The notes under the pieces are model-generated. The model did not search any database, was not told the DNA's origin, and saw nothing but the letters and a program-made list of their open reading frames with translations. Shown one piece after another: positions 7,569 to 34,185 of a stretch of DNA of 64,000 nt. Origin of the DNA: Candidatus Hydrogenedentota bacterium (GTDB lineage: Bacteria > Hydrogenedentota > Hydrogenedentia > Hydrogenedentales > SLHB01); assembly GCA_045863315.1 (NCBI GenBank), contig BTUX01000001.1, forward strand, positions 6,611 to 70,610, written 5' to 3'. Every line of letters starts with the position of its first letter. Within the stretch, counting starts at the first letter, position 1. The translations under genes were made by a program, and so were the position numbers.

Positions 7569-7747
7569 TCCCCTGCTGGATCGCTCCCGCTTCCTCGCGG
7601 AAGTTCTACAAGTCTACTTGTTTGAAGTATACCAGAATCATCGATTCCGCTTGCGCCGCAAGTGCGCCCGGATGCGCCACTATGCTAGGATTTCCCGCGT
7701 ATTGGCGTGATCGATGTTCGATTCGTCCCCGCCGCAAGAAGGAGCAA

Positions 7748-9451
7748 ATGAGCATGGTCCCTCGCACGCACCTCCCTGCGCACTTCACCGCCGCCTTCCT
7801 CATCCTCGCGGCCTTCGGCTGTGGCGGCCCCACGCCGGCCCGCCAAACCGGCCCTACCGAGTCGCCGGGGCAACCGGCGCCTACGGCCGCCAACACACAA
7901 ACAACGAACGTTGAGCCGCAACCCGGTGATTGGCTGGTCGAAAACCTCGGCGCCGAACCGGCACTTCTCAATCCGATTCTCGACCTCGTCGACGCGGGCG
8001 GCCGCTACATCTGTTCTCGCATCTTCGATACCTTGATTGACTTGGACAACGAGACGCTCGAGTTTATTCCAAATATCGCCGAGAAATGGGAAATTTCGGA
8101 CGATCACCTCGTCTACACGTTCTACTTGCGAAAAGACGCCGTCTATTCGGACGGCGTACCCGTAACGGCCCACGACGTGAAGTTCACTTACGACCTCATC
8201 AAAAATCCCGCCGTCGACGCCGCCGCGGCCCGCAGCTACTTTGTCGATGTTCAGTCCGCGGAACTCGTGGACGACTACACGATCCGGTTTACATGCGTAA
8301 AGCCTTATTTCCGGCACATCCTGACGCTCGGCGCGCTTGAGCCGATTCCTCGTCACGTCTATGGGCAAGGCGATTTCAACCGCCACCCCAATAACCGGCA
8401 TCCCATCGGTTCCGGCCCCTACAAGTTCGAAAAATGGGAAACGGGGCAGCAGATTTCACTGGTCCGAAACGAGCGCTACTGGGGCCCAAAACCCATGCTA
8501 GACAGGCACGTCCTGAAAATCATCACGGACGATAACGCATCCTTCCAAGTCCTGGAACGACACGAGATCGACATCATGCAGATGCAACCCGAGATGTGGA
8601 AACGCCGCGCATCGACACCGCAGTTTGAGAGAGAGTTTGCGAAACTGACCCCACAATCGCCCATACCGGGCTATCTGAGCCGCTTCGGATACATCGGATG
8701 GAACATGCGCAAACCGCAATTCGAAGACAAGCGCGTACGCAGGGCCTTGACGATGCTGCTGGACCGGCAAACCATACTGGATCGAATCTACATGGGGCTG
8801 GGTACGCTGATTTCGGGAGATTGCTTCCCGGGCGAACCTGAATACAATCCCAACGTGAAGCCGCTTCCGTTCGCGCCGCAGGAAGCCGTGAAGTTGCTCG
8901 AACAAGCGGGTTGGATCGATGCCGACCGAGACGGCGTTCGCGAGAAAAACGGCGTACCGTTCACCTTCGAGTTGTCCTACGCCGCCGACATCCCCGAATA
9001 CGACCGCATGGCGACGGTCTATCAAGAGGAACTCACCCGCGCGGGCATCAAGATGTCTCCACGCCCGCTCGAGTGGGCCGTCTTTCAAGAGCGCGTACAG
9101 AAGCGCACGTTTGACGCGTGCATGCTCGCATGGCTGACAACCCCGCTCTATGATCCGTACCAATTGTGGCATTCCAGCCAGGCGGAGGAAGGATCCAATT
9201 ATCCCGGATTCAAGAATGCCGAGGCGGACGCAATCATGGAAAATGCCCGCGTGGAGTTTGATCGGGCCAAGCGCGTGGAAATGTACCACCGGTTCCATGA
9301 GATTCTCGACGAAGAGCAGCCCTATACGTTTCTCTTCAGCCGAAACGGCCTGATTGCGCTGGACAAGCGATTCCAAAACGTGCAGGTATATCCGCTCGGT
9401 CTGGATCCACTCGAATGGTGGGTGCCTGCCGAATTGCGCCGGTATAAATGA
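7748..9451 (+). CDS. ABC transporter substrate-binding protein, family 5 (peptide/nickel; OppA/DppA-like)
   Basis: SBP_bac_5-like sequence throughout with a signal peptide. Start at ATG 7748 (MSMVPRT...) is preceded by AGAAGGAG; the track's 7622 start is probably an upstream extension. Confidence 0.8.
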   Translation: MSMVPRTHLPAHFTAAFLILAAFGCGGPTPARQTGPTESPGQPAPTAANTQTTNVEPQPGDWLVENLGAEPALLNPILDLVDAGGRYICSRIFDTLIDLDNETLEFIPNIAEKWEISDDHLVYTFYLRKDAVYSDGVPVTAHDVKFTYDLIKNPAVDAAAARSYFVDVQSAELVDDYTIRFTCVKPYFRHILTLGALEPIPRHVYGQGDFNRHPNNRHPIGSGPYKFEKWETGQQISLVRNERYWGPKPMLDRHVLKIITDDNASFQVLERHEIDIMQMQPEMWKRRASTPQFEREFAKLTPQSPIPGYLSRFGYIGWNMRKPQFEDKRVRRALTMLLDRQTILDRIYMGLGTLISGDCFPGEPEYNPNVKPLPFAPQEAVKLLEQAGWIDADRDGVREKNGVPFTFELSYAADIPEYDRMATVYQEELTRAGIKMSPRPLEWAVFQERVQKRTFDACMLAWLTTPLYDPYQLWHSSQAEEGSNYPGFKNAEADAIMENARVEFDRAKRVEMYHRFHEILDEEQPYTFLFSRNGLIALDKRFQNVQVYPLGLDPLEWWVPAELRRYK

Positions 9452-9528
9452 CCGGGGTCCCGAAGATGAATTGTAAGGTCGCCGCGCCGCGCAACGATGC
9501 GCCGCCAGCGGGCAAATGGTGAGCGGAC

Positions 9529-10620
9529 GTGAAAGACTACCTGCTTCGCCGGTTCCTTCTGATCGTTCCCACGTTCATCGGCATCAGCCTCGTCACGTTT
9601 CTCGTCGTTCAGTTGGCGCCCGGCAATCCGGTCATGTTGCGGTTGCGCGCCGCCGGCGGCGCCATGGCGTCCGAAGGCGTTACCCAGGAAATCATTGAAC
9701 AAACGAAAAAACTCTACGGACTCGACAAACCCATTCCCGTTCGATACGCGCAATGGCTCGGCCGGCTCGCGACCCTCGATTTCGGCGATTCGTTCAAAGA
9801 CCACCGCCCGGTCCGCTCCAAAATCGCCGAGACGCTCCCCATTACACTCCAAATCAATATCCTGTCCCTGGTCTTCGTGTACCTCATTTCAATACCGGTC
9901 GGCGTGTTCTCCGCCACCCACCGCAACTCGAAACGCGACCGAATGACGAGCGTCACCCTCTTCCTCCTCTACAGCCTGCCGAGTTTCTGGGTGGCCATGC
10001 TGCTCATGTACTTCTTCGGCGGCGGCGGAGGCTCGCGATCTCTCCATTGGCTCTTCGAAAGCCTGTTTTCCACCTGCGGAATACTGGATCGGAAGGCCGT
10101 TCAGTGGCTGCTGAACAGCGTTCTACACTTCAACTGGTTTCCCGTCTTTGGCGTGAACTCCTTCGGCGCGCAGGATTGGCCCTGGCACCGGTGGCTTCTG
10201 GACCGGCTGTGGTATCTCATCCTGCCCGTCTTCTGCCTCAGCTACGCTTCCCTCGCTTCGACATCGCGCTATATGCGCGCAGGCATGATCGAGGCCATCG
10301 GCCAAGACTACGTTCGCACCGCGCGCGCGTATGGGTTTTCCGAGGGAACCGTTGTATACAAGTACGCCATGCGCAACGCACTCATTCCCATCTTGACGCT
10401 CCTTGGCGAAGAACTTCCCCTCCTGATCGGCGGCAGCGTCATCATCGAAAGCATTTTTTCCATACCGGGCATGGGCCGCCTGGCCTTTGAAGCGATCCTG
10501 TCGAGGGACTACCCGCTCATTATGGGTATCCTTTCCATTACCGCGCTTCTCACGCTGCTGGGGCTCATCCTCTCGGACGTTCTGTATGCCCTGACGGACC
10601 CGCGGATCAAATTCGACTGA
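9529..10620 (+). CDS. ABC transporter permease (DppB/OppB-like)
   Basis: 363 aa with 6 TM helices, BPD_transp_1-type permease and a GTG start. Confidence 0.85.
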   Translation: MKDYLLRRFLLIVPTFIGISLVTFLVVQLAPGNPVMLRLRAAGGAMASEGVTQEIIEQTKKLYGLDKPIPVRYAQWLGRLATLDFGDSFKDHRPVRSKIAETLPITLQINILSLVFVYLISIPVGVFSATHRNSKRDRMTSVTLFLLYSLPSFWVAMLLMYFFGGGGGSRSLHWLFESLFSTCGILDRKAVQWLLNSVLHFNWFPVFGVNSFGAQDWPWHRWLLDRLWYLILPVFCLSYASLASTSRYMRAGMIEAIGQDYVRTARAYGFSEGTVVYKYAMRNALIPILTLLGEELPLLIGGSVIIESIFSIPGMGRLAFEAILSRDYPLIMGILSITALLTLLGLILSDVLYALTDPRIKFD

Positions 10621-10629
10621 GCCCCCACG

Positions 10630-11633
10630 ATGGCACCAATCAACTCACAACGCACCAGTTACTGGCAGTTAGTCCGGCGTCAGTTTCGCAAGAACCGGTT
10701 TTCGGTCTTCGCGTTCTGGTTCCTCGCGTTGCTGCTCGTGCTGGCCGTCTTGGCCCCCTTTCTGGCCGGCGACAGGCCCATCATCATGAGGCGCGACGGG
10801 ACGTGGTACTGGTTCCCAAACGTCCTGGAATACAAGGATCTCGTGGACCTGCAAGGGAGATTTCACGAATGGCGGCCCGGCGAGGGAGAATTCGCGTATA
10901 GACCCCCAATACCATACGCGCCGGAGCGTTCGGACCTGTTGCGGGCGCTCGAGGCGCCCAATCGCGAACATTGGCTCGGCACCGACGACCGGGGCCGCGA
11001 TGTCCTGAGCCGCCTCATCTGGGGCACGCGAATCTCGATGAGCGTCGGTTTCGTCGCCGTTGGTATTGCCTGCGTGATCGGCGTGTGCATCGGTGCGCTT
11101 GCCGGGTATTACGGCGGCAAGGTGGATGCGGTCATGCTGCGACTGATCGAGGTCATGAAATGCTTCCCCGTCTTCATCTTCATTCTGACGCTCATCGCCT
11201 TTCTGCCGCAGAGTATCTTCAACATCATGGTCGTGATCGGCGTCACAAGCTGGACGGGCGTCGCGCGGCTGGTCCGCGGCGAGATGCTTCGCCTGCGCGG
11301 GCAGGAATTTGCTGTCGCCGCCAAGGCCGCAGGCCTCGCTGACGCGCGCATCATCTTCCGCCACCTCCTTCCGAATGCGCTCGCTCCCGTCCTTGTATAC
11401 GCCACGTTCGGCGTGGCGAGCGCCATCCTGATTGAAACCGCGCTGAGTTTTCTCGGTTTTGGCGTGCCCCCGCCGATCGCGAGTTGGGGCGAGACGCTTT
11501 CTCAGTCAAAACGGTATATTGACTCCGCGTGGTGGCTCGTGGTGTACCCCGGACTGGCGATTTTCGCGACGGTCACCGCCTTCAACCTCGTGGGCGAAGG
11601 CCTGCGCGACGCCATGGACCCGAGGTTGCGCGA

Positions 11634-11637
<4 letters not shown>
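10630..11637 (+). CDS. ABC transporter permease (DppC/OppC-like)
   Basis: 335 aa, N-terminal OppC-type domain and a permease core with an EAA-like loop. Confidence 0.85.
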
Positions 11638-12674
<1,037 letters not shown>

Positions 12675-12781
12675 CACCATGCGCCGCATTCGACAAGAGA
12701 CGGCCGCAATCGTCAAACGCGGCGCTACGCCGATGCGATCGCACTCGCGACGTCCAACCCCCCGCGTTGTCCCGACAATCC

Positions 12782-13780
12782 ATGACACCTGAACAACAGA
12801 ACAACGGACTCCTCGTCGTCCGCGACCTCGTCAAATTCTTTCCCGTCCGGAAAGGCGTGTTCTCACGCGTTGTGGGGCACGTGCGCGCGGTCGACCGCGT
12901 CAGTTTTTCCATCAAACGCGGCGAGACGCTGAGCCTCGTCGGCGAGAGCGGTAGCGGCAAAACCACCTGCGGCCGCGCCATTCTCCGGCTTGTCGAGCCG
13001 ACTTCCGGCAGCGTGACCTTCGACGGCATCGAGGTCACGACGCTGGGCAAGCGGGAACTCCGCGGCCTTCGCAAACGCATGCAGATTATCTTTCAGGACC
13101 CCTTCGGCTCGCTGAACCCCCGCATGACGGTCTATTCGATGCTCAGCGAGATCCTGCGCACCCACCGGCTCGTGCCCCGCGCCAAACGCCGCGACCGCGT
13201 CGCCGAACTGCTCGACCTCGTCGGCCTATCGCCCGAAGCCGCGGACCGCTACCCCCACGAATTCAGCGGCGGCCAGCGCCAGCGCATCGGCATCGCACGC
13301 GCGCTTGCCGTCGAACCCGACCTCATCGTCGCCGACGAACCCGTCTCCGCCCTTGACGTGTCCATCCAGGCCCAAATCCTGAACCTCATGAAAGACCTCC
13401 AAGACAAACTCGGCCTCACGTACCTATTCATCGGCCACGATCTCAGCGTGATCAAACACATCTCGGATTCCGTCGCCGTCATGTACCTCGGGCGTGTCGT
13501 CGAATACGGAACCGTGCATGACATCTTCGAGCGCCCCGTTCACCCCTACACGAAGGCGCTGCTCGCGGCAGCGCCCGTGGCCGATCCCGACGCCAAACAG
13601 ATGCGCAAACCGCTCGGCGGCGACGTGCCCAGTCCCATCCATCCGCCGTCCGGTTGCCACTTCCACCCGCGCTGCCCCGACGCCGAACCCACCTGCCGCG
13701 AACAAGAGCAGGCCCTGACGGCCTGCGGCCCCCGCCACGCCGCGGCATGTCACATCCACGCGCCGGCAGACCCCTACTAA
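12782..13780 (+). CDS. ABC transporter ATP-binding protein (DppF/OppF-like)
   Basis: Walker [10 protein letters not shown], signature FSGGQRQR, Walker [13 protein letters not shown]. Start placed at ATG 12782 (MTPEQQ...) within a longer upstream open frame. Confidence 0.8.
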
Positions 13781-15014: not shown

Positions 15015-15454
15015 GAAATATTCCCCGGCGGATTATATGGAAGGTACCGACAACAGACAATGCGCTCAGCCAGCCGAAATATAGGGAACTCGAATTTTGG
15101 AGATATTCACAACTTATCCACAGCTTCGCCCTATTTACCTGACTGCTTTCAATTATGGCTAGAAAAATCGATAAAAATTGAACGGCGACAAACTTCAACA
15201 ACATAACCTATTTACGGATAGATATTTATCCAAAATCGAATACGCTGTAAAAAAGTCCACGCCTACGGATTGCTGGCAAGGGTAGAGGTAATGATAAGCG
15301 ATCGGGTCAATAATGAAGTGAAGTTATCCACAGAGCACTGCAACTAGCCGAAAGAAACGGCACACAATATATTGGGGTCAGTGGAGTCTGGCAATCGTCT
15401 GAAAAATTAGGCATCATCCCATCTATTTGCCCGCATTGAGTCCGGACTGACGCC
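15015..15454. other. AT-rich intergenic segment with DnaA-box cluster (putative oriC part 1)
   Basis: Perfect TTATCCACA at 15114-15122 and 15324-15332. Near boxes ATATTCACA at 15103-15111 and TTATCCAAA at 15226-15234. GC is far below the window average. Confidence 0.5.
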
Positions 15455-16564
15455 CTAGATTCGGATCGGCATAATGACGTTCATATACTGGTGGGACGAC
15501 TTCCCTTCGTAGGGCTTAATGAGGCCCGGACTTGATCCGTCCTTGAGAATGAAACAGAGCTTCTCCGTCTCGATTCGTCGAATTACCTCCAAAATAAAGT
15601 CAGGATTGAACGCGACGTCGATACTTCCCCCCTCGAACTCGACCTGCATTTCCTCTTCGTACTCGCCAACCTCCGGGGTAACGACGTGTAACTTAAGAGA
15701 GGAACCGTTAACCGTAAACCGGACGGAGTTGAATTTGTCGTTGGTCATGGTGCGTGTCCGGCGCACCGCTTCAAGAAAAGCCGCTGTTTCGATGACCGCC
15801 TCTTTATCATGCTTCTTGGGAATAACCATATCGTAATTCGGAAAGTTTCCTTCGATAAGAGCCGTCACCAGCCGCACTGAACCGAACTGGAATGCCGCTT
15901 GAGTCTCATCGAGGTATACCTGTACCTCCCCTTCCTCACCCAATAGCCGTTCAAGTTCATTGATCATCTTTCCCGGAATAATCACCTTAATGTTAAGGTC
16001 CTTGGGTATACCCTCCCGTTCACTGAACAGGCTCATGCGGCGCCCGTCCGTAGCGACAGTCGTCAGCTTCCCATCAACAAGCTCACACAGCAACCCGGTC
16101 AGGTTGTAACGCGCCTGGTCTGTACAGATGGCGAAGCTCGTCTTTTGAAACATCCTCTTCAGCAACCGCTGCCCAAGTAAAATAGGTTCAATGCCTTCAC
16201 ACGACCGCACCGGCGGAAACTCCTCGGCGGACATACTGAAGAGCTTCGTGTGAATCTTCCCTGCCGCTTCAATATTGATGACATTGTTGCCTGACAAATC
16301 CAACGTAACCTCACACTCAGGCAACTCCGAAAGAATAGATGACAATCGTTGAGATGAAACGGTAAGGGAACCTTCCTCATCAACGGTACAATCAGCATTG
16401 CACTCGATACTGACCTTCAGGTCGGTAGCGGTCAGTTTCACGGTGCTGTCCTTTGCCTCCATCAGGATATGAGACAGAATCGGCAATGCGGACTTGGGTG
16501 AGACAACCGTCTTTACCTTGTTCACCGCATCGAGAAGGTCTTGACGGGAAATACGGATTTTCAT
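15455..16564 (-). CDS. dnaN: DNA polymerase III beta subunit (sliding clamp)
   Basis: 369 aa, three-domain clamp. N-terminal MKIRISRQDLLDAVNKV is typical of DnaN. GC is about 51%, lower than neighbouring genes. Confidence 0.9.
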   Translation of the reverse strand: MKIRISRQDLLDAVNKVKTVVSPKSALPILSHILMEAKDSTVKLTATDLKVSIECNADCTVDEEGSLTVSSQRLSSILSELPECEVTLDLSGNNVINIEAAGKIHTKLFSMSAEEFPPVRSCEGIEPILLGQRLLKRMFQKTSFAICTDQARYNLTGLLCELVDGKLTTVATDGRRMSLFSEREGIPKDLNIKVIIPGKMINELERLLGEEGEVQVYLDETQAAFQFGSVRLVTALIEGNFPNYDMVIPKKHDKEAVIETAAFLEAVRRTRTMTNDKFNSVRFTVNGSSLKLHVVTPEVGEYEEEMQVEFEGGSIDVAFNPDFILEVIRRIETEKLCFILKDGSSPGLIKPYEGKSSHQYMNVIMPIRI

Positions 16565-17406
16565 TCGTTAGCTCTCCACCGCCGTAAAATGAATGCAAGT
16601 TATGCTTTATTGCGTAGGTGACTTTTGTATATAAAATAAGTAGTCGTAGTAGTCCTTATCTTGAAACTGTGAATAAGTCTCTAAGTGAAGTAAAAGCGCG
16701 GAGTTCCGTGTTGGATAGGTCTTGAGTACGTTGGTGTGCTTATTCACAGTGTTGTGGAAAGGCTTTGTTTTTCTGGATTCACCGTATGAAATCTGCGTTC
16801 TCCGCTGTGGAAAACAGCCGATCTGTCCACTGCCCGCTAACAGCCAATACACCGCACTATCCCCAAATACTTAACAAGCCCTAGAAACTTTACTTATCCA
16901 CCGTTTCAATCGATACAGTTCTAACGCTCCTATTTTCTAGTATGGGATTTTCGATATTTCAATTCCGTCATGCAAACTACTACTCGGAACAATATATAAT
17001 CTCTCTAGTGAAATATATATAAGGTATTTAAATAAAAGACTTTACAAATCCATTAACTAAATCGCCTAATAATTACGAACGCCGGTCCGAAGTCGTAAAA
17101 TCAAGAAAAACAACTGTCTCTATGTGGTGCCTTATTACGACAAACACCTAGAGTTATCAACACGTTATCCACTCCTGAATCAAGTACAGCGAAGGTTCGG
17201 CGCGAAGGTCGGCGACAGGCAACTGCACCGCTATAAACCCTGTAAATCAAAGGCTATACTTGGACTTGTAATCGTATATTACCGGAACCCCGCATGTCAT
17301 GCTAACAGACGGTTCCACGTAATTGCAAGAGACCCTGACCGGATTCATCAAAAATTCATAACGTATTATTATATATATACTTATGTGTTAAGTGAAAGCC
17401 TAAGTA
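16565..17406. other. AT-rich intergenic segment with DnaA-box-like 9-mers and AT tracts (putative oriC part 2)
   Basis: 9-mers with 0-1 mismatch to TTATCCACA: 16668-16676 (reverse strand), 16740-16748, 16806-16814 (reverse strand), 16894-16902, 17154-17162, 17165-17173. AT-rich tracts near 16990-17040 and 17355-17395 are candidate unwinding elements. Confidence 0.5.
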
Positions 17407-19380
17407 TTAGGTTCGGATAACGCGCAGAAACTCTTCCGGCGCCACAATTCCTTGTTTTACCTTGTGCCGGCATTTTTCCGCCATCGTCTTGAGCTTGGCG
17501 GCCTTTGAAATCTTTTCCACCGACTCATCTTCCGAGATGAGACGGCGCAGCTCTTGGGTGATTTCCATAATTTCAAAGATACCGGTACGCCCCTTGTACC
17601 CGGTATGGTAGCAGTTGTCGCACCCCTTGCCGCGGTAGAGTTTTTTTGTGGTTTCCGGCAGATGCAATGATTTCAGTAACGGCTTGGTCGGGGTGAAGCC
17701 TTCCTTGCATTCCGGACATATCTTCCGAACCAGCCGCTGGGCCACCACGGCCGTCAGGGCCGTGGCGATAAGGTAGGAGGGCACCTGCATGTTCCGAAGG
17801 GTGGATATGGCTTCCGGGGCATCATTGGTGTGCAGCGTACTGAAGACCAAATGGCCGGTCATGGCCGCACGAATGGCGATCCGCGCCGTTTCGGAGTCCC
17901 GAATTTCGCCGACCAGCAGCACATCGATATCTTGTCTCAGGGCCGCCCGCAAGGTGTTCGCAAACGTAACATCGATGTCCGTGTCGATCTGTACTTGGTT
18001 AATCCCCGACATCTGGTATTCGACCGGGTCTTCCAGTGTCACAATGCTGTCGGTGAGAACATTTTTCTGGTTCAACGCCGCATAGAGCGTGGTGGTCTTT
18101 CCGCTGCCGGTCGGCCCGGTGACCAGTATCATGCCATACGGTTGCCCGATGACCCGCCGCATGGTGGCCTCATCTTCCGGTTCCAGACCGAGATCCTTAA
18201 TTCCCGCGAGCACCGAAGTCTGGTCTAGCAGTCGCAACACGACGCGTTCCCCGAGGTAGGTTGGGAGCGTCGCAACGCGAACGTCGAACTCTCGGTCTTT
18301 TGATTCAATCCGGATATGGCCGTCCTGCGGCCGCCGCACTTCCGTGATGTCAAGGTCTGCCATAATTTTGATGCGAGAGATCACCGCCGACTCGATGTCG
18401 GGCGAGATACTCATCACGTCGTGCAGGATGCCGTCAATCCGATATCGCACGCGCATTTCTGGTTCCTGCGGATCCATATGGATGTCCGTCGCCCCGGAAT
18501 TGATCGCGCCCTCGATTATCGTCGATACCAGCTTGATGACCGGCGCGCCCTCCGCCTCCTTCGCGATCTCGTCAAAACGTCGTTTGTCCTTGGTTTGCGC
18601 CGCCGTGCTCACGATGGTTTCCACCTCCTTGGGTTCGGGTTTCCGGGTCTTCGTCTTCTGCGGTACAGCCTTTTTTTCCTGCGCCGGTTTGGCTTCCACG
18701 TGCGCCACGTGGTCCCCGGCGGGTTCCTTCCTATGCATGGAAAGCAGACCTCCGCGCTTGACCCCTTTGTATCGCGCGCGAATTTCACTCTTGAAGTCAT
18801 CGCTGTTGGTCAACACCGGGTGAAACCGTTTACCTAGGATTACGCCGAGATTGCCCAGGTCTTCCCGCACCTGCGGCTTCGCGATCAGGCAGGTGATCCG
18901 GTCCCCTTCGATGTGCACCGGCAGCACTTGGTACTTTACCGCGAAGCTCTCCGGCACCGCGTCAAGCGCCGCCTGATCGCTCTGCGTTTCCTCCAACTCG
19001 GAAAACTCGAGCCCGTGCTGCTTCGCCAACGCGACCGAGATCGTCCGGTTCGTTACCAGTCCGCGATCGAGGAGAATCTTGCCCAGCAGCCTGCCGGTGC
19101 GTCCCTGTTCCTCCAGCGCGTCTTTAAGCTGCTCTTCGGTAATGGCATGGAGCTGGACCAGGGTTCGACCCAGCGTTTCCTGTTCGTGTTTGACGGCCCT
19201 CGGATGGTACTCGTAGCGAAGCTGGTCGAACGTGATTTTCCCCAATTGGAGCAGCGATCGGTAGAAGGGAACGCCCGATGTCTGTTCCCGCTTACGCGCG
19301 CTGTCCAACTCCTCGCGCGTGATCACGTCATCCTTGACGAGGTCGTCCCCGAGCCCTGCCCGGCGTTGCTCTTCGGCCAT
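17407..19380 (-). CDS. GspE/PilB family secretion ATPase (type II secretion / type IV pilus assembly)
   Basis: Two N-terminal GSPII_E_N-like domains, Walker A GPTGSGKTT, Asp box, Walker B, His box, and a C-terminal CxxC...CxxC zinc motif. Start set at ATG 19380 (MAEEQRR), preceded by GGAAGGGGA; an in-frame alternative lies at 19446. Confidence 0.8.
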   Translation of the reverse strand: MAEEQRRAGLGDDLVKDDVITREELDSARKREQTSGVPFYRSLLQLGKITFDQLRYEYHPRAVKHEQETLGRTLVQLHAITEEQLKDALEEQGRTGRLLGKILLDRGLVTNRTISVALAKQHGLEFSELEETQSDQAALDAVPESFAVKYQVLPVHIEGDRITCLIAKPQVREDLGNLGVILGKRFHPVLTNSDDFKSEIRARYKGVKRGGLLSMHRKEPAGDHVAHVEAKPAQEKKAVPQKTKTRKPEPKEVETIVSTAAQTKDKRRFDEIAKEAEGAPVIKLVSTIIEGAINSGATDIHMDPQEPEMRVRYRIDGILHDVMSISPDIESAVISRIKIMADLDITEVRRPQDGHIRIESKDREFDVRVATLPTYLGERVVLRLLDQTSVLAGIKDLGLEPEDEATMRRVIGQPYGMILVTGPTGSGKTTTLYAALNQKNVLTDSIVTLEDPVEYQMSGINQVQIDTDIDVTFANTLRAALRQDIDVLLVGEIRDSETARIAIRAAMTGHLVFSTLHTNDAPEAISTLRNMQVPSYLIATALTAVVAQRLVRKICPECKEGFTPTKPLLKSLHLPETTKKLYRGKGCDNCYHTGYKGRTGIFEIMEITQELRRLISEDESVEKISKAAKLKTMAEKCRHKVKQGIVAPEEFLRVIRT

Positions 19381-19708
19381 GCGTGGGTCCCCTTCCTGGA
19401 TCGATAACGCCACCCAAACACTGCACCGTTTGGAACCGGGCCTCATTATATGAATCGTCGGCGCACCGGTAAAGCACGATCTTTACGACGCAAGGCGCCC
19501 CAATTTGGAGTGCGGGCGTACAGGGCAGTGCGAACGGAGTCGTCTGGTTCCGAGTGCGTGCCGCGCTCGGCGAGCGTACGGATGAGGAATGTTGGGTGTT
19601 TCTCAGCAGACTGTGATGGTTTACCACCGGCGAGTGAAAGGGGTGAGAAATGCGGGCTAACGGTTCGCCGTTTTATTCACTTAACGCACCCTGAAACTCG
19701 GGCGAGGT

Positions 19709-19900: not shown

Positions 19901-20035
19901 GTGAAAAGGACGTATCAACCATCAGTCCTGAAGCGGAAGCGAAACCACGGGTTTCTGAAGCGGATGGAAACCGCGGCCGGCCGGGAAGTGATCCGCCGCC
20001 GCAGGGCGAAAGGCCGCAAGCGTCTTTCCGCGTAG
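19901..20035 (+). CDS. rpmH: 50S ribosomal protein L34
   Basis: 44-aa [47 protein letters not shown] matches the L34 consensus. GTG start with AAGGAG at 19889-19894. Below the 60-aa track cutoff. Confidence 0.85.
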
Positions 20036-20062
20036 AAAGAGTGAGTAGGACGTGAAAGTGTT

Positions 20063-20419
20063 GTGCCGGGGCCATGCGCATATCCCAGGTTCGAACGCAT
20101 CACCCGCAAGCGCGACTATCTCGAGGTCTTTGAACAGGGCCAGAAGCGGGTCGGCAGGGCGTTCATTTGTTACGTGGTCCGGCGGGAAGGTCAGGGACGC
20201 AGGTTTGGATTAGCTGTATCGCGCAAGGTTGGCAGCGCCGTCGTTCGCAACCGGGTCAAACGTTATTTGAAAGAGATATACCGCGCGAACCGGTTGCGTC
20301 TCGCGGATGACGCTCGAATCGTCATCGTCGCCCGGCCCGCCGCGGCCAACCTCGATTACCGGCAGTGCGTGAACGCGGTACAGCGGCTCCTCGATGAAGG
20401 AGATGTGCTCCGTGGGTAG
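20063..20419 (+). CDS. rnpA: Ribonuclease P protein component
   Basis: 118 aa, basic, with RNR-like motif region (GLAVSRKVGSAVVRNRVKR). Immediately follows rpmH, as in the canonical arrangement. Confidence 0.85.
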   Translation: MPGPCAYPRFERITRKRDYLEVFEQGQKRVGRAFICYVVRREGQGRRFGLAVSRKVGSAVVRNRVKRYLKEIYRANRLRLADDARIVIVARPAAANLDYRQCVNAVQRLLDEGDVLRG

Positions 20420-20621
20420 TGTTCTGGTTGCGTTCATTCGCGTTTACCAGATCGTGTTGTCTCCTCTGCTCGGGCGGAATTGCCGTTTCCACCCGAGTTG
20501 CTCCCACTATGCCATCGGGGCCATTCAGAAGCATGGCGTATTGCGCGGTATGGTCTATACCGTGCGGCGCATTGCGCGGTGCCATCCGTTCAACGCGGGC
20601 GGCTACGATCCCGTTCCCTAG
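20394..20621 (+). CDS. yidD: Membrane protein insertion efficiency factor YidD
   Basis: 75 aa with YQ..LSPLLG..CRFHPSCSHYA motif characteristic of YidD. Overlaps the rnpA 3' end; alternative starts at ATG 20403 and GTG 20412. Confidence 0.8.
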   Translation: MKEMCSVGSVLVAFIRVYQIVLSPLLGRNCRFHPSCSHYAIGAIQKHGVLRGMVYTVRRIARCHPFNAGGYDPVP

Positions 20622-20743
20622 AACCCGCTCTCCGGCACAGCAGACGCAGCGGCCGAAATGACCAGCCCCACGGCGGAACAGCAACCGCCGGACGGGGCGC
20701 GCGCGGCCCGAACGAACTATCGGGCTCCGAGCAGGAGAGCACG

Positions 20744-22621
20744 GTGTTAGACGACGAACAGGAAAAGCAGCAGGCGCGCAATCAGCTCATTGCGTTCGTG
20801 CTGATGTCGGTTCTCTTGATTGCCTGGCTGCAGTTTCTTCCCAAGCCGCAGCCCGCGCAGCAGCCCCAACCCCTTGTCGGCGAACAGCGGGTGGAAGCCC
20901 CCGTTTCTCCGGTGGACCTCAACGTGGCGGCCGCGCCGGAGGCGGGCGCGGAACCGTCGGGCTGGCCGTATCTTCCGCCCGTTCCTGAGCAGGACAATCC
21001 GGAAGCCGACGAGGTCGTTTTGCGCGATGCGGAAATGGAACTCCTGTTTACGCGCATCGGCGGCAGACTCAAGCGCGCGACGCTCGCGGTCGGCGAACAC
21101 GGCAACGACCGGATTCAGTTGGTTCCCGAGTCGCCCGACTCCCCGGACGTGGAGGCCGTTTACCCCTTTGGCCTGCGGTTCACCAACGAAGCGATTCGAG
21201 ACGAACTCGATCGCCGACGCTTCGACGTGGTCCGCCAGTCTGACCGCGAGGTCGTATTCCGCCTGACCCTGCCCGGCGCGGCGGTAATCACGAAGACCTT
21301 TCAATTGACGGATTCCGCGCACGTGCTGCGCGCCCTCGTCGAGTACAAGAGCCTCGAGGACGCGCCCCGCATCCTGGGTCGTGATCAGGACCCCGCGTAT
21401 ATCCTGAACTGGGGACCCAACGTCGCGTCGCAGGATTTTCAGAAGGGGGTTCGGCAGGCCTTGATCTGGCGGGTGGATGGGAAGAACACCACGCTGGAAA
21501 CCGCGAAAATGGCCGCGGACGAAAACGGCGAGGTGTTCACCCGGCGCATTGTCGGCCCGACATGGATGGGCGTGCGCAGCGCCTATTTCCTCGTGGCGAT
21601 GCGGCCTGAATTCGATGGAGGCGTGGGCTGGGCCCTTGGCGATCCGCACCGGTTCCGGTTCGGCGTGGCGGCACCACGGACCGAAGTGCCCGCGCAAGGT
21701 TCCATCGAGCACTCCTACGAGATTTACCTCGGTCCGATGCAACTGAAGGAACTCAAGGCGGCGTGGCCGACGCTCGATACTTCGCTGCGCTTCTTCTCGT
21801 ATCCCGACTTGATGGACTGGTTCGCGAAGATGCTGCTGCAACTGCTGAACTGGTTCTACGGGATCGTTCCGAATTACGGCGTGGCCATTATTCTGCTCAC
21901 CATTGTCGTCCGCACCGTCATGTTCCCTTTGACCATCAAACAGATTCGAAGCATGAAACGGATGACGCTGCTTGCGCCGGAAATGGAGAAGATCAAGCAG
22001 CAATACGGGGAAGACCCGCAGGAATTCCAGCGCCGGATGATGGAGCTGTACAAAGAACACGGAGTCAATCCCGTCAGCGGATGCCTTCCGCTGTTCCTTC
22101 AGATGCCGGTGTTCATCGCGTTGTACCGCATGTTGTGGAGCGCGTATGAGCTGCGCGGCGCGCCGTTTGCCTTGTGGATCAAGGACTTGTCCGAGCCGGA
22201 CAAGCTGCTGCACATTCCCCCGCTGCACGTGGTGCCCATCTTCGGGCCGTACATTCAATACATCAACGTGTTGCCGTTTCTGGGGGCGCTCGCGATGATC
22301 CTCAGTGTCAAGCTGACCCCGATGCAGAACCCGATCCAGAATCCCCAGCAGAAGATGATGATGACGCTCATGCCGATCGTATTCAGCGTCTTCTGTTATC
22401 CATTGGCGTCGGGACTGAACCTGTACATTCTGGTCAGCACGCTGTTGGGTATCGCGCAAAACTACCTGATTCACGTGAGCGAGGTGGACAAACCCGCCAA
22501 GGTGAAGCCCAGGAAAAGGCAGCACTTTTATACCGCGGCGCTACAGAAGCGCCGCCAAATGGAGCGAGAAGCGCGCGAACGAAAGAAACGCAAGAAGAAA
22601 GTCGACGGCGACGAGGCGTAA
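20744..22621 (+). CDS. yidC: Membrane protein insertase YidC
   Basis: N-terminal TM segment, large periplasmic domain and a conserved C-terminal 5-TM core (..VMFPLTIKQ...MKRM..LAPEM...). Start placed at GTG 20744 after AGGAGA; the track ORF from 20480 would overlap yidD. Confidence 0.8.
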   Translation: MLDDEQEKQQARNQLIAFVLMSVLLIAWLQFLPKPQPAQQPQPLVGEQRVEAPVSPVDLNVAAAPEAGAEPSGWPYLPPVPEQDNPEADEVVLRDAEMELLFTRIGGRLKRATLAVGEHGNDRIQLVPESPDSPDVEAVYPFGLRFTNEAIRDELDRRRFDVVRQSDREVVFRLTLPGAAVITKTFQLTDSAHVLRALVEYKSLEDAPRILGRDQDPAYILNWGPNVASQDFQKGVRQALIWRVDGKNTTLETAKMAADENGEVFTRRIVGPTWMGVRSAYFLVAMRPEFDGGVGWALGDPHRFRFGVAAPRTEVPAQGSIEHSYEIYLGPMQLKELKAAWPTLDTSLRFFSYPDLMDWFAKMLLQLLNWFYGIVPNYGVAIILLTIVVRTVMFPLTIKQIRSMKRMTLLAPEMEKIKQQYGEDPQEFQRRMMELYKEHGVNPVSGCLPLFLQMPVFIALYRMLWSAYELRGAPFALWIKDLSEPDKLLHIPPLHVVPIFGPYIQYINVLPFLGALAMILSVKLTPMQNPIQNPQQKMMMTLMPIVFSVFCYPLASGLNLYILVSTLLGIAQNYLIHVSEVDKPAKVKPRKRQHFYTAALQKRRQMEREARERKKRKKKVDGDEA

Positions 22622-22745
22622 ATCGGGAAGAACGCGGTCCAGTCCGTCTTCAGGACCCGTCTTCGGCACGAGGCCGGCCTTGGGGGTGTGGCGTATGCGC
22701 CGGCGTTTGCGCTGCGTTGCGCAAAGAACAAAGGGAGACCCATAG

Positions 22746-23744
22746 ATGCGAACGGTCGAAGTATCGGCTAAGACACGGGAAGAAGCGATCAAGAAGGCGT
22801 TGCACGAACTGGGGGTGGAGCGGGACGAGGCGCACGTCGAGATTCTGGATGAAGGCAGCCGCGGTATATTCGGATTGGGCGCGCGCGACGTGCGGCTGCG
22901 CGTTTCGAGCGAGGCCGCCAAGGCGAGGCCTTCGCATGCGGCCGGCGACGCCGCGCTCTTGCTGAAGGAAATCATTCAACGAACCGGCATTGAAGCAACG
23001 GTGCGCAGCGAGTCGACCGCCGACGGCGGCATGTGCCTGAAGGTCAGCTCGCCGGATTCGGCGCTGCTGATCGGGCGCAAGGGGCGAAGCCTCAGTTCGC
23101 TCCAGTATCTCATCAACCGCATGATTCATCGCGGCGACAACGATGACACAGAGCGAATCACGATCGACATCGAAGGATATCTCGATCGGCGGCAAGAAGC
23201 CCTCGAGGACCTCGCGCGCCGGCTGGCCCGGCGCGCCAAGGAAACGGGACGCCGGGTCCGCGTGAAACCCATGAGCGCGCAAGAACGGCGGATTATTCAC
23301 GTCGTCCTCGAGAACGATCCGGACGTCAAGACCTTCAGCATCGGCGACGCCGCCATGCGCAGCGTCGTTATCGCCCCGAAAGACGAAAAAACCGGCGAGG
23401 ACGAACGCGGCAGCGAGCGGCATCAGCGGCGGCCCCATCCGCAGCGGCGCGGCGGCGGGCCCCGCCAAGGCGGCGAGCGTCGCGGTCCATCGGCACAACC
23501 GCGACGAGAACACTGGCGAGATCGCCGCGCTCCAGCAGACCGAAGCGGCGGACCGGACCTTGCCGTTCGCGAGGAAGGGGGGGACCGGCCGGATCAGGGC
23601 GAACGCGGGGAACGGGAAAACCGCACGTTCAACGGACCTCGTGGGCGCAGGCGCGGCAGGCGGCGCGGGGGACCGCGGCCCGAACGTCGGGGCCAGGGGC
23701 CCGCGCCCGTAGAGGCGCCGGCCGGTGAACCGCAGGACGCCTGA
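22746..23744 (+). CDS. jag: Jag/KhpB RNA-binding protein (Jag_N + KH + R3H) with long Arg/Gly-rich C-terminal tail
   Basis: N-terminal Jag_N-like region, KH-like GRKGRSLSSLQYLINRMI, R3H-like ERRIIHVVL. The last 130 aa or so are RG/RR low-complexity. Canonical position after yidC. Confidence 0.7.
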   Translation: MRTVEVSAKTREEAIKKALHELGVERDEAHVEILDEGSRGIFGLGARDVRLRVSSEAAKARPSHAAGDAALLLKEIIQRTGIEATVRSESTADGGMCLKVSSPDSALLIGRKGRSLSSLQYLINRMIHRGDNDDTERITIDIEGYLDRRQEALEDLARRLARRAKETGRRVRVKPMSAQERRIIHVVLENDPDVKTFSIGDAAMRSVVIAPKDEKTGEDERGSERHQRRPHPQRRGGGPRQGGERRGPSAQPRREHWRDRRAPADRSGGPDLAVREEGGDRPDQGERGERENRTFNGPRGRRRGRRRGGPRPERRGQGPAPVEAPAGEPQDA

Positions 23745-25104
23745 AGACACCATCGCGGCGATCTCGACGCCGCCGGGCGAAGGCGGCATCGGCATCGTCA
23801 GGCTGAGCGGCCCTCAGGCCATCGCGATCGCGCGCCGCATGTTCGTTTCCTCACGCGGGAAAGACATTCGTGTGGCGAAAGGGCCGGTGTTTCACGGCGA
23901 AATCCGCGACGAACGCGGCACGCTGGACGAAGTGCTTGTTCACGTCATGCGCGCGCCGCACAGCTATACCGCGGAAGACGTGGTCGAGATCAACGGGCAC
24001 GGTGGCGCGGGTCCGCTTCAGTCGATTCTGGAGTTCGCGCTGCGCTGTGGTGCGCGCCTCGCCGAACCGGGCGAGTTTACCAAACGGGCGTTCCTCAACG
24101 GCCGGATCGATCTCGTCCAGGCCGAGGCGGTCATCGATCGTATCCGCGCCCGAACGGACGCCTCGTTGAGGGCCGCCGCGGCCGCGGGCAGCGGCGTTCT
24201 GTCGCAATCCATTCACGCGCTGCGGGAAGTCCTGATTGACGCCCTCGCGCGCGTCGAATCCGCCATCGACTTCCCTGAGGAGGACTTGCCCGAACTCGTG
24301 GATGAAGCCTTGCGCACGCGGCTCGCGCAGGCACGCGACCGCATGTCCGACCTCCTCGCCACCGCCCAGACGGGCCGGCTCTACCGCGAAGGCGCGTCGG
24401 TCGCCATCGCCGGCCGGCCCAACGTCGGCAAATCCAGCCTGTTCAACGCGCTGCTGCGCGACGCCCGGGCCATTGTCACCGCAGTCCCCGGCACGACGCG
24501 CGATTTGCTGGAAGAAGTCATCACGATCGACGGCGTACCCGTCCGCCTCAACGACACGGCGGGATTGCGCGCCACGAGCGACGAAGTCGAGCAAATCGGA
24601 ATGGAACGCGCGCGTTCGGCGCTCCGGGCGGCCGACATCGTGCTGTGCGTGGTGGACGCGTCCGTCCCCTACACGCCCGAGGACGCCGAACTGGCGTGCG
24701 ACTTGGTGGCGCTTGGGCGCCCCGCCGTGCTCGTGCTGAACAAGACCGATCTCGCGCCCTCGCCGCGCCCACCCGATTGGGCCTCGGAATTCCATCATAC
24801 CGTCGCGGTATCGTCGCTCACCGGCGAAGGACTGAAGACCTTGGAACGGACGCTGGGCCGGATGTTGCTCGGCGGCGCGCCGATTGCTCCGGACCAGGGG
24901 CTCATCACACGCGTGCACCAACGCGACAGTTTGCGCCGCGCCCGTGAAGCCCTCGAACGGGTGTTGGAGAACTACAACGCGTCGCCGGAGTTTCTCAGCA
25001 TTGACCTGCGGGACTCTCTCGACGCGCTGGGCGAAATCACCGGCGACACCACGCCGGAAGACGTCCTGGATCGCATTTTCTCCTCGTTCTGCATCGGCAA
25101 GTGA
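23725..25104 (+). CDS. mnmE: tRNA modification GTPase MnmE (TrmE)
   Basis: N-terminal IAAISTPPGEGGIGIVRLSG, G-domain motifs GRPNVGKSSL and DTAG, and the C-terminal CIGK tetrapeptide typical of MnmE. Confidence 0.9.
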   Translation: MNRRTPEDTIAAISTPPGEGGIGIVRLSGPQAIAIARRMFVSSRGKDIRVAKGPVFHGEIRDERGTLDEVLVHVMRAPHSYTAEDVVEINGHGGAGPLQSILEFALRCGARLAEPGEFTKRAFLNGRIDLVQAEAVIDRIRARTDASLRAAAAAGSGVLSQSIHALREVLIDALARVESAIDFPEEDLPELVDEALRTRLAQARDRMSDLLATAQTGRLYREGASVAIAGRPNVGKSSLFNALLRDARAIVTAVPGTTRDLLEEVITIDGVPVRLNDTAGLRATSDEVEQIGMERARSALRAADIVLCVVDASVPYTPEDAELACDLVALGRPAVLVLNKTDLAPSPRPPDWASEFHHTVAVSSLTGEGLKTLERTLGRMLLGGAPIAPDQGLITRVHQRDSLRRAREALERVLENYNASPEFLSIDLRDSLDALGEITGDTTPEDVLDRIFSSFCIGK

Positions 25105-25735: not shown

Positions 25736-26281
25736 ATGAAATCGACCCGGATGCAAAATTCTAGAGCGTCGGATCCTTACGCGGACTACCCCGCCAATTT
25801 CGATTATGCCCATTCCTGCGGCGTGATTTACGGCTGGTTCTCGGCGAAGGGCCTCACCCGCCTTGAACTGCCCCACGCCGAGCGTGGACCAATACACCGC
25901 AGCGTGTTGCACTCCTCGGCCAACGACACGCGGGTGCGCGCCCTGAAGTCCGCACTTGAACGCTATTTCTCCGGTTTGCGCGAAGATTTCAGCGAGGTGC
26001 CTCTCGACCTCGACCACGCGAGCGATTTTCAACGCGAGGTCTGGGAAGGCGCCCGAAATGTGCCGTGGGGACACAGCATGACCTACGGCGAACTGACGAC
26101 CCGATTGAACATGCCCAGAACCGCTTCGCGAGCGGTCGGTCACGCGCTGGGACAGAACCGAATCGCTATCGTCATACCCTGCCACCGGTTCATCGGGGCC
26201 GACGGCAAGTTGCATGGTTTCGCCGCGGGTCTGGCATGGAAGCGCAACCTACTCGCGCTGGAAGGGATTTTATTGCACTGA
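25736..26281 (+). CDS. ogt: Methylated-DNA--protein-cysteine methyltransferase
   Basis: C-terminal DNA-binding domain with the active-site motif IPCHRFIG. Confidence 0.8.
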   Translation: MKSTRMQNSRASDPYADYPANFDYAHSCGVIYGWFSAKGLTRLELPHAERGPIHRSVLHSSANDTRVRALKSALERYFSGLREDFSEVPLDLDHASDFQREVWEGARNVPWGHSMTYGELTTRLNMPRTASRAVGHALGQNRIAIVIPCHRFIGADGKLHGFAAGLAWKRNLLALEGILLH

Positions 26282-27619: not shown

Positions 27620-28255
27620 TCAAAAGAGACCGAGGCGGGCGTATGCGTCCACCTCGACTTCCGCTTGCCAGTCGATGGGCGAGTCGGGAGCCGTGCCTGC
27701 GGCCTGGATCAGCAACTTGGGACAGCCCGTGCCCGGCAAGGACTCGTTCTCGCGTATCAGTTCGAGCAAATCGACGCCCGATCGCGGTTCTATCTCGATC
27801 GCATCCCCAAAGCCGCTAAGGGAGAATGCCCCGCCAAGATTCACGCGGCCAAGTACGCCCCCCGATCTCGGCACAAAGTAAAGTTGAATGGCCTTGACGT
27901 TGCGGAAGTCGCCGCGGTCCGCGCGAATGACTGTAGTCCGAAGTTGGACGCGGCTGAGTCGCACCACGCTGCTCAGGTCAATGTTCCCCGCGACCCGGAA
28001 CACGTCCGTCAACTGGTCTTCAGTCGGCAGGTTGCACAGATCCTGCTCGACCGAGCCGGCCAGCAGCGGCAGATTGGCGTCATTCGCGAAAACCGACGGA
28101 TCCATCGTGCCCGCGCCCATGGGGATCGCAAAGGAGATCGGCCCAATTTCCAGACCGTTCTTGACGCCGCAGCCGGCTGCCAGCGCCGCCGCGAGGAGAA
28201 CCAAGATCACGAGGCGCATTAGATTACGCTCCACACTCTCCGTATCCATTGCCAT
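27620..28255 (-). CDS. Hypothetical lipoprotein
   Basis: Signal peptide with lipobox LAAGC; true start is possibly Met at 28219. The overlapping plus-strand ORF 27416-28222 is Arg-rich and not protein-like. Confidence 0.5.
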   Translation of the reverse strand: MAMDTESVERNLMRLVILVLLAAALAAGCGVKNGLEIGPISFAIPMGAGTMDPSVFANDANLPLLAGSVEQDLCNLPTEDQLTDVFRVAGNIDLSSVVRLSRVQLRTTVIRADRGDFRNVKAIQLYFVPRSGGVLGRVNLGGAFSLSGFGDAIEIEPRSGVDLLELIRENESLPGTGCPKLLIQAAGTAPDSPIDWQAEVEVDAYARLGLF

Positions 28256-28415
28256 TCCCGCACCGCTTCAGGTAGATTCGAGGGGCTCCACCGACGATAC
28301 AACCGATTCGGGGCAGTATTACGCGGAAATCCCGCAAAATTCTCGGTTTGAACAGGTTACACGGTGCGTCCGACCGGCTGTCGGGGAGCCGTGCCGCGTG
28401 CCCCACGAGCTAACT

Positions 28416-33261: not shown

Positions 33262-34185
33262 ATGTCTGAACACCAAAAACCCAGTGGCGATACGACCCGA
33301 TTGGTACTGGCGGAGGAACTGGCCAGCCTGCGCGCCCGCATGCAAGGGCGGCGCGCGAGCCTCATCGTGCTTTCGGGCTGGCAGATCGGCCACGAATTTG
33401 CCTTGGAAGGCGCCAACTGGACCATTGGCCGCTCACCCGATGTCGAGATCACGATCAATCTGCCGTCCGTCTCCAGACAACACGCGCGAATTTCGCGGGC
33501 GCGAGACGACGAAGCCGAGTACTTCGAGATCACCGATCTCGGGAGTATGAACGGCACCCACGTGAACAACGAACTCATTTCGCCGTCCGTCCGCTTGAAC
33601 AACGGCGACAAAATCCAACTCGGCGACGTCGTCGTGAAATTCATGCTCCAGGATGCCGTCGAGGCCGAGTTCCATCAGGAAGTCGCCCGCCGGATTCACT
33701 ACAACCAATTGACCGGCCTGCTCACCCTCGAGTCGTTCAAGCCGCATCTCGCCGAGGAGATCGCCCACGCGAAGCCCGGTACTCGTTTCACCATCGCAAT
33801 GACCGACCTCGACGGGCTCAAGAAGGTGAACGACACCTTCGGCCACCTTATGGGCAGCCGGATCATTCAGGAGATGGGCGCGGTGATGCGCGGTATCCTG
33901 CGGCAAAGGGACCGCGCCGGCTTGTACGGGGGCGATGAGGCCATCCTCCTGTTTCCCGACACGCCTATCGACAAGGCCCTCGAGATCGCGGAATCGCTCC
34001 GAATCGGGATCGCCGACTGCAAGTTCGAAGCCGGCGGGCAAACCTTCGGGGTGACCATCAGCCAAGGCCTTGCCGAATTCCCCACGCACGGGGATACGGT
34101 GGAGAAGCTCATCGCCGCGGCGGACGGAGCCCTGTATGCCGCCAAAGGAGCGGGACGCAACTGCGTGCGCGTCGTGGAGGGCTGA
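33262..34185 (+). CDS. FHA domain-GGDEF domain protein (diguanylate cyclase-like; motif reads GGDEA)
   Basis: N-terminal FHA (GRSPDVEITI...SRQHARI...NGT) and a C-terminal GGDEF fold with RYGGDEA in place of GGDEF and a possible I-site region. Confidence 0.75.
   Translation: MSEHQKPSGDTTRLVLAEELASLRARMQGRRASLIVLSGWQIGHEFALEGANWTIGRSPDVEITINLPSVSRQHARISRARDDEAEYFEITDLGSMNGTHVNNELISPSVRLNNGDKIQLGDVVVKFMLQDAVEAEFHQEVARRIHYNQLTGLLTLESFKPHLAEEIAHAKPGTRFTIAMTDLDGLKKVNDTFGHLMGSRIIQEMGAVMRGILRQRDRAGLYGGDEAILLFPDTPIDKALEIAESLRIGIADCKFEAGGQTFGVTISQGLAEFPTHGDTVEKLIAAADGALYAAKGAGRNCVRVVEG

Follow-up and report, generated by a model that had tools for sequence, protein, structure and literature searches.

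A 64-kb stretch of the metagenome-assembled genome of an uncultured Candidatus Hydrogenedentota bacterium (hereafter the window, in whose coordinates all positions are given) contains what is very probably the chromosomal origin of replication, oriC. We place this origin at positions 15015–17406, a segment made up of dnaN, the gene for the DNA polymerase III beta clamp, and the two AT-rich spacers on either side of it, and judging by its motifs, their conservation and the strand asymmetry around them we put the probability that it acts as a DnaA-dependent oriC at about 0.88. An earlier sequence-only reading of the window had proposed an origin organized around dnaN, with dnaA encoded elsewhere. 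This proposal is supported here by an array of DnaA boxes that recurs throughout the phylum, by a conserved box–trio unwinding module, by a switch in GC skew at the spacer upstream of dnaN and by a related genome in which the boxes stayed with dnaN when the neighbouring gene moved away.

DnaA boxes on both sides of dnaN

The identity of dnaN (15455–16564, minus strand, 369 amino acids) was established by matches to all three Pfam DNA_pol3_beta domains (1–3) and to TIGR00663 (300 bits, against a cut-off of 138). Upstream of it lies a spacer of 842 bp (16565–17406, 40.0% GC), running from the stop codon of a secretion ATPase gene to the dnaN start, which its GC content, boxes and conservation mark as the candidate core of oriC. 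A second spacer, of 440 bp (15015–15454, 43.4% GC), extends from the dnaN stop to an epimerase gene and holds a further cluster of boxes, a candidate second sub-origin or accessory cluster. These two spacers are the sole stretches below 45% GC within the 64 kb, the mean of which is 61.3%, and dnaN itself has 50.4% GC; the AT-rich flanks and the low GC of the gene (then put at about 51%) had both been pointed out before and are borne out.

Allowing at most one mismatch, the DnaA box TTATCCACA occurs 14 times in the window, compared with 4.85 ± 2.07 times in shuffled sequence, and nine of these 14 matches fall within the 1.28 kb of the two spacers. Because AT-rich DNA could inflate box counts, each spacer was shuffled separately (2000 dinucleotide-preserving shuffles each). 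The downstream spacer contains three boxes where 0.11 are expected, a number reached by 1 of 2000 shuffles, and the upstream spacer contains six where 0.22 are expected, a number reached by none of 2000. No other DnaA-box cluster was found in the 64-kb window.

All boxes of the downstream spacer lie on the plus strand. A perfect TTATCCACA (15114–15122) forms a tandem pair with ATATTCACA (15103–15111, two mismatches), the two being set at an 11-bp step with a 2-bp gap (15103–15122), and is followed by TTATCCAAA (15226–15234, one mismatch) and by a second perfect TTATCCACA (15324–15332). The boxes of the upstream spacer are best described by their distance from the dnaN start codon. The nearest, at −112, is TTATTCACA (16668–16676, one mismatch), which together with the degenerate GTTTCAAGA (16659–16667, four mismatches) forms a tandem on the minus strand (16659–16676). 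Further out are TTATTCACA at −184 (16740–16748, plus strand), TTTTCCACA at −250 (16806–16814, minus strand) and TTATCCACC at −338 (16894–16902, plus strand), with one mismatch each, and finally a distal tandem on the plus strand (17154–17173), in which TTATCAACA and TTATCCACT (starts 17154 and 17165, one mismatch each) follow one another at an 11-bp step (−598/−609). The two perfect boxes and at least seven near-perfect 9-mers of the sequence-only reading thus correspond to two perfect and seven one-mismatch boxes in our count, and the tandem pair that it placed at 15103–15122 is present, with two mismatches in the partner of the perfect box.

Conservation of the box array across Hydrogenedentota

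We compared the locus with 38 loci retrieved by a scan of GTDB species genomes and five more obtained by exact-sequence look-ups of homologues, metagenome contigs included. In nearly all of them the spacer upstream of dnaN is AT-rich, 630–930 bp long and furnished with 1–10 boxes, whereas flanking DNA holds 0.05–0.3 boxes per kb. The positions and orientations of the boxes are fixed with respect to the dnaN ATG, with a tandem at −610/−599 (again at an 11-bp step) and single boxes at around −335, −286, −250, −184, −155 and −112; the window has boxes at −609, −598, −338, −250, −184 and −112. In a MAFFT alignment of 35 spacers the DnaA boxes emerged as conserved blocks, the best conserved of which is the distal tandem (cTGTGgATAAc.TGTGgAtAA), found near −610/−599 in most loci. 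The box consensus of the phylum, TGTGGATAA/TTATCCACA, is of the Escherichia coli type, and TTTTCCACA is merely one of several variants. Comparison with related taxa, which had been suggested as a check on the prediction, reveals a box array that recurs at fixed positions across the phylum. In one genome (loci L018 and L044) the ATPase gene has been separated from dnaN, and there the DnaA boxes remained with dnaN.

Some relatives (L020, L024, L028, L030, L031, L033 and L035) carry a DnaA box at about −30 from the dnaN ATG, between the AT-rich stretch and the ribosome-binding site. This box is perfect in L028, L033 and L035, has one mismatch in L020, L024, L030 and L031 and is absent from the window; through it DnaA may control dnaN expression in these species.

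A conserved, putative unwinding module next to dnaN

DnaA-trios have the consensus 3'-GAT-5', and in the basal unwinding system (BUS) the parts follow one another in the order box, spacer, trio and AT-rich stretch; such a box–trio module has been reported in 85% of predicted origins (PMC8287927). Beside the −112 box, the window contains a module (16619–16676) whose trio complement and order of parts match this description. The tandem boxes are followed by a spacer of 6 bp (16653–16658), by a DnaA-trio array on the minus strand (16638–16652), which reads 5'-CTA CTA CGA CTA CTT-3' in the dnaN sense and 3'-GAT GAT GCT GAT GAA-5' on the plus strand of the window, and by the AT-rich stretch TTTTATATA (16619–16637), about 55–75 bp before the dnaN start codon, which is most likely the DNA unwinding element. 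The box TTATTCACA, with one mismatch, ends 15 bp before the trios and so lies within the BUS limits of at most two mismatches and 0–16 bp from the first trio. A central A is present in four of the five triplets, the run being broken by the third (CGA).

This module, box-box-spacer-CTACTACGACTACTT-TTTTATATA, is conserved at about −113 to −55. Read in the dnaN sense, almost all loci have, some 80–90 bp 5' of the ATG, a box, a weaker box 11 bp on, a spacer of 4–6 bp ending in ccCTA, the triplets CTA CTA CGA CTA CTT and then gTTTTATATA, and the phylum consensus of the trio-proximal boxes is gTTtTCCAC..tTTcCACA..ccCTA. Nearly all of the approximately 40 loci have the trios around −88 relative to the ATG, conserved at up to 1.7 bits per column, and the interruption at the third trio is itself conserved (central A in 13% of loci). 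The published BUS search pattern is satisfied in 20 of 39 loci, compared with 3.7 ± 1.9 in shuffles.

Averaged over the phylum, the AT profile shows its main peak at −80 to −40 (mean AT 0.75), beside the trios, and a second peak at −480 to −450. The stretch at 16619–16637 coincides with the first and strongest of these peaks. When the 40-mers of the 64 kb are ranked by stability, the lowest three all fall in the upstream spacer, and the stretch is part of the third of them. Unwinding elements had previously been sought in the AT tracts at 16990–17040 and 17355–17395. Both tracts exist and provide the lowest two 40-mers of this ranking, but neither is the conserved stretch adjacent to the trios. 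The former overlaps the second AT peak and belongs to a distal AT-rich element with conserved TAA...TTA ends (16990–17046), which includes the 40-mer of lowest stability in the window. The latter overlaps no peak and was rejected as an unwinding element, not being conserved in relatives. The likely unwinding site, as far as conservation and position indicate, is 16619–16637 next to the trios rather than either of these tracts.

In a number of relatives (for example, L028, L033, L035 and L038) a TAA-N4-TTGAT...TTA element at about −480 and about −140 matches the IHF consensus YAANNNNTTGATW. With at most one mismatch, each of the two sites is found in 8 of 37 loci, against a background of 0.46 per kb, and the match in the window (about 17020–17046) is weak. 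A hit to the same consensus at −603 was not counted as an IHF site, as it results from the tandem DnaA boxes.

In the mechanism that we propose for this origin, DnaA would occupy about eight boxes across some 620 bp upstream of dnaN. The tandem boxes at 16659–16676 would guide an ATP-DnaA filament onto the trios (16638–16652), and this filament would open the AT-rich DNA at 16619–16637, a process equivalent to the basal unwinding system of Bacillus subtilis, which likewise lies just upstream of dnaN. The downstream cluster (15103–15332, three to four boxes) may loop to the distal tandem pair (17154–17173), enclosing dnaN, and dnaA would be encoded elsewhere in the genome.

GC skew around the locus

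For the comparison of GC skew, every locus was turned to put dnaN on the plus strand. Between −10 and −4 kb the mean over 38 loci ranges from −0.02 to −0.055, and between 0 and +6 kb it ranges from +0.02 to +0.07. The sign changes at the spacer, and 27 of 32 loci show a higher value downstream than upstream (p = 4e-5). Gene-strand usage is alike on both sides of the locus (0.46 vs 0.44), so that the switch is not an artefact of coding strand. It represents the polarity of an origin, from lagging to leading strand, located at the spacer. On the left arm of the window itself the skew is about −0.10, also where genes are on the plus strand, and immediately to the right of the origin it is +0.03 to +0.08.

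The search for dnaA

As the sequence-only reading had stated, dnaA is missing from the window: neither tblastn nor Pfam scans of about 40 open reading frames (ORFs) detected it there. Searches of 861 kb (the window and 45 loci) by tblastn with the DnaA proteins of E. coli and B. subtilis likewise found no dnaA within ±10 kb of dnaN in 43 loci, the best hit (E = 0.019) being a spurious one inside rpoC. The E. coli query was validated by its matches to solved DnaA structures of Bacillus, Aquifex and Thermotoga, at 1e-65 to 1e-119. We also scanned metagenomes with YidC from the window. In eight Hydrogenedentota-like contigs that include the upstream flank, neither dnaA nor a box cluster was found beside rpmH–rnpA, and in seven contigs of other lineages, which provided a positive control, canonical dnaA was recovered beside rpmH (E 1e-100 to 1e-174). 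In the Hydrogenedentota sampled, dnaA is thus linked to neither dnaN nor rpmH. Literature searches on DnaA of Hydrogenedentes or Hydrogenedentota found nothing relevant. A phylum that lacks DnaA altogether nevertheless appears very unlikely, since the conserved boxes and trios are DnaA-specific binding motifs.

One-part or bipartite origin

Boxes occur within 600 bp 3' of the dnaN stop codon in about 22 of 40 species, usually as a tandem pair with an 11-bp step between +110 and +140 together with a lone box between +290 and +330, and 54 of these 58 boxes share one orientation regardless of the gene that follows. The window fits this pattern, with boxes at +123 (accompanied by its two-mismatch partner), +221 and +333. 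Its two clusters (15103–15332 and 16659–17173) are split by a single gene, with trios and the AT-rich stretch in the upstream cluster only, which is the arrangement of a bipartite origin; the gene between them is dnaN, so the locus does not enclose dnaA. The earlier description of bipartite clusters flanking dnaN accordingly stands for the window. As a trait of the phylum, however, the bipartite character is lineage-variable, because no more than about 22 of 40 species possess the downstream cluster.

The odds are somewhat under even that the origin is monopartite, with the upstream spacer alone serving as oriC and the boxes at 15103–15332 titrating DnaA or regulating the next gene, like the non-origin clusters of B. 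subtilis. All of the approximately 18 species without the downstream cluster keep the full upstream array and the trio module, and the cluster has neither trios nor a conserved AT peak of its own. It also sits in the promoter region of a co-directional gene, an epimerase gene here and PIG-L in L002 and L004. On the other hand, where the cluster is present its orientation and geometry (the tandem and a single box about 180–210 bp further) are constant whatever gene follows, it mirrors the distal tandem pair of the upstream spacer, and bipartite origins that loop out a gene have a precedent (PMC3479198). On balance, we regard the downstream cluster as probably an accessory DnaA-binding part, and by analogy a split origin enclosing dnaN is plausible.

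Evidence weighing against the assignment

Several observations count against assigning oriC to 15015–17406. With CGA as its third triplet, the trio array of the window departs from the strict BUS rule, which asks for at least three NAN triplets in a row, and roughly half of the species have no downstream cluster. The skew is a local measure, and on the right arm of the window it is close to zero, not clearly positive, past about 24 kb. Furthermore, no switch in gene co-orientation was found at the locus; with gene-strand usage equal on both sides, co-orientation therefore gives no independent support for an origin. Finally, dnaA was not located in the loci searched, so that the initiator is a predicted component in this phylum and may have a box cluster of its own.

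An unlikely alternative is that both clusters are regulatory or titrating DnaA sites, either a relic of dnaA–dnaN operon control or a locus of the datA/DARS kind, and that the true oriC lies elsewhere, for example near dnaA. The skew data are local and dnaA was not found in the loci searched, DnaA-box clusters outside oriC exist in other bacteria (PMC3245932), and the box some 30 bp before the dnaN ATG in certain relatives resembles promoter control. Regulatory clusters are nonetheless not expected to carry conserved trios and an AT-rich stretch at fixed spacing. An array of boxes with fixed geometry over 620 bp, a skew polarity switch located at the dnaN spacer across species and the lack of any competing box cluster beside rpmH–yidC in relatives likewise argue for an origin at dnaN itself.

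The neighbouring ATPase gene and the rpmH cluster

Upstream of the origin spacer, a 679-codon ORF on the minus strand (17407–19446, probable start 19380) encodes a secretion ATPase of the PilB/GspE family with an MshEN c-di-GMP-binding motif (Pfam T2SSE, 1.9e-129, and MshEN). The protein scores below the NCBIfam equivalog cut-offs for both PilB and GspE, and has Walker A and tetracysteine motifs. In the canonical layout, rpmH / dnaA-oriC-dnaN, dnaA precedes the origin, and the ATPase gene occupies the slot and orientation usual for dnaA. The sequence-only reading had placed it on the opposite strand; it is in fact on the strand of dnaN, the one that dnaA would take, and is opposite only to rpmH. 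It adjoins oriC–dnaN in the same orientation in approximately 35 of 43 loci, while other neighbours vary, and its product is 61–75% identical across the phylum. No pilus or secretion partner genes are adjacent to it in the window. A diguanylate cyclase with FHA and GGDEF domains is encoded 14 kb from this c-di-GMP-binding ATPase (33262–34185, plus strand).

In the genome represented by L018 and L044 (contig CAXXYE010000009.1) the ATPase gene is found 370 kb from dnaN. Close to each of the two breakpoints is nrdD, and the ATPase gene in its new place has a recombinase fragment nearby, which suggests a rearrangement with a breakpoint between ATPase gene and origin. In the most divergent loci, L038 (8018–9091, minus strand) and L039 (3427–4500 and 6779–7552, both minus strand), no ATPase gene adjoins the origin–dnaN unit; in its stead a T2SSF (PilC/GspF) gene lies upstream, and downstream there is a pilin-like gene (N_methyl/DUF1559). 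These neighbours hint that a secretion or pilus cluster may ancestrally have stood next to the origin. The simplest reading is that the ATPase gene is a relic of such an old cluster. A functional coupling between ATPase and origin is very doubtful in our view. It would involve either transcription into the origin that modulates initiation, or a protein that ties c-di-GMP signalling or envelope/pilus assembly to the start of replication or to the positioning of the origin; in a milder version, dnaN looped out between DnaA-bound clusters would mechanically couple clamp expression and initiation.

Divergently from the ATPase gene, the window contains the cluster rpmH-rnpA-yidD-yidC-jag-mnmE (19901–25104, plus strand), with rpmH at 19901–20035 and yidD at 20394–20621. 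These genes had been taken as origin-proximal context. Their identities are confirmed, but the rpmH–yidC cluster adjoins the origin in this genome only (0 of 43 other loci) and hence cannot be used as general supporting context. In other Hydrogenedentota-like contigs (L046–L062) it has no dnaA, dnaN or DnaA-box cluster alongside.

Base composition and remaining features of the window

The DnaN of the window is 100% identical to a protein from a Candidatus Hydrogenedentota metagenome-assembled genome (MAG) and 57–82% identical to other DnaN proteins of the phylum, relationships that indicate vertical inheritance within Hydrogenedentota. Its GC content at codon positions 1+2 is below that of neighbouring genes in 35 of 35 loci, GC3 is lower in 27 of 35, and across the phylum GC dips within about ±3 kb of the origin. 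Most of the GC deficit of dnaN is intrinsic to the gene throughout the phylum and is not a sign of foreign DNA. That dnaN and both spacers, at 10–20 GC points under the window mean, form a horizontally acquired or mobile island carrying the boxes of its own replicon is effectively refuted by the comparative data, given a layout conserved in about 40 species, DnaN similarity that tracks the phylum, a GC trough shared phylum-wide, a low GC of dnaN that lies mainly at codon positions 1+2, and no integrase, repeats or tRNA near the segment.

Rfam and tRNA scans of the window gave no matches, the parS consensus had 0 matches with up to three mismatches allowed, and promoter and terminator counts in the two spacers were not above those of shuffles. 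On the 3' side of dnaN, the NAD-dependent epimerase gene is followed by an oligopeptide ABC transporter operon (7622–13780, plus strand), whose orientation to dnaN is the reverse of that in the related genome L004 (12495–18425). Genes for a PolX-family polymerase with a PHP domain (27888–30116, plus strand) and for a protein with an O6-methylguanine methyltransferase domain (25736–26281, plus strand) are also found near the origin. An AAA_21/AAA_15 ATPase gene with the family name putative AbiEii toxin (38841–40016, plus strand) has a GC3 of 0.61, compared with 0.77–0.83 in its neighbours, and may be a recent acquisition.

Comparison with known origins

We found no description of an origin for Hydrogenedentota in the searchable literature. 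The present analysis provides a base-level map of boxes, trios and unwinding stretch for a candidate phylum, which can be used in orienting and quality-checking closed MAG chromosomes and in peak-to-trough estimates of growth rate in metagenomes. An origin linked to dnaN with dnaA elsewhere is already a known type; the prediction is sound and not surprising, and it does not overturn the current understanding of origins, although its architecture is conserved to an unusual degree. The predicted Hydrogenedentota origin belongs to this type because cyanobacteria share the dnaN-linked layout and because the box–trio module is widespread.

In cyanobacteria an oriC linked to dnaN, with dnaA elsewhere, is the rule and has been experimentally confirmed (PMC4009838, PMC4674748). 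As in Synechococcus elongatus PCC 7942, Anabaena PCC 7120 and Cyanothece ATCC 51142, the origin described here lies directly upstream of dnaN, dnaA is not adjacent, the arrangement is phylum-wide, and boxes together with a stretch of AT-rich DNA are found by the dnaN start. The box consensus differs, being TTATCCACA/TGTGGATAA here in place of the cyanobacterial TTTTCCACA; the latter is a trait of the cyanobacterial lineage and not a mechanistic requirement. Compared with the three boxes of Cyanothece, the array here has about eight boxes at fixed positions over 620 bp, and it is further distinguished from cyanobacterial origins by the second cluster 3' of dnaN in around half of the species and by the conserved PilB/GspE-type ATPase gene upstream.

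The unwinding module resembles that of B. subtilis oriC, which occupies the same place just upstream of dnaN and has the same order of tandem boxes, spacer, 3'-GAT-5' trios and AT-rich stretch, both origins being split by a gene (PMC8287927, PMC6669920). They differ in that the enclosed gene here is dnaN and not dnaA, no dnaA lies upstream, and the third trio is a conserved non-consensus CGA; function in the present case is predicted. The two clusters also resemble oriC1 and oriC2 of Helicobacter pylori, which are likewise separated by one gene of approximately 1.1–1.4 kb and have an unwinding element in one part only (PMC3479198). In H. pylori the enclosed gene is dnaA, both parts are needed in vivo and DnaA binding depends on supercoiling, whereas the second cluster of Hydrogenedentota is not universal in the phylum; looping between the H. 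pylori sub-origins offers a model for a possible interaction of the two clusters here (PMC3479198).

Unlike the origin described here, oriC of E. coli is not adjacent to dnaN. It has an IHF site between DnaA boxes near the unwinding element, and some Hydrogenedentota origins contain IHF-consensus matches (about −140 and −480) that are weak in the window. Neither origin is linked to dnaA, and that of E. coli has a weak BUS score (PMC8287927). Set against these systems, the Hydrogenedentota locus hints at a variant, a split origin whose enclosed gene is dnaN. It would add an independent lineage to the view that the box–trio unwinding module is ancestral in bacteria and, after cyanobacteria, a second phylum-scale case in which oriC has stayed with dnaN while dnaA moved off.

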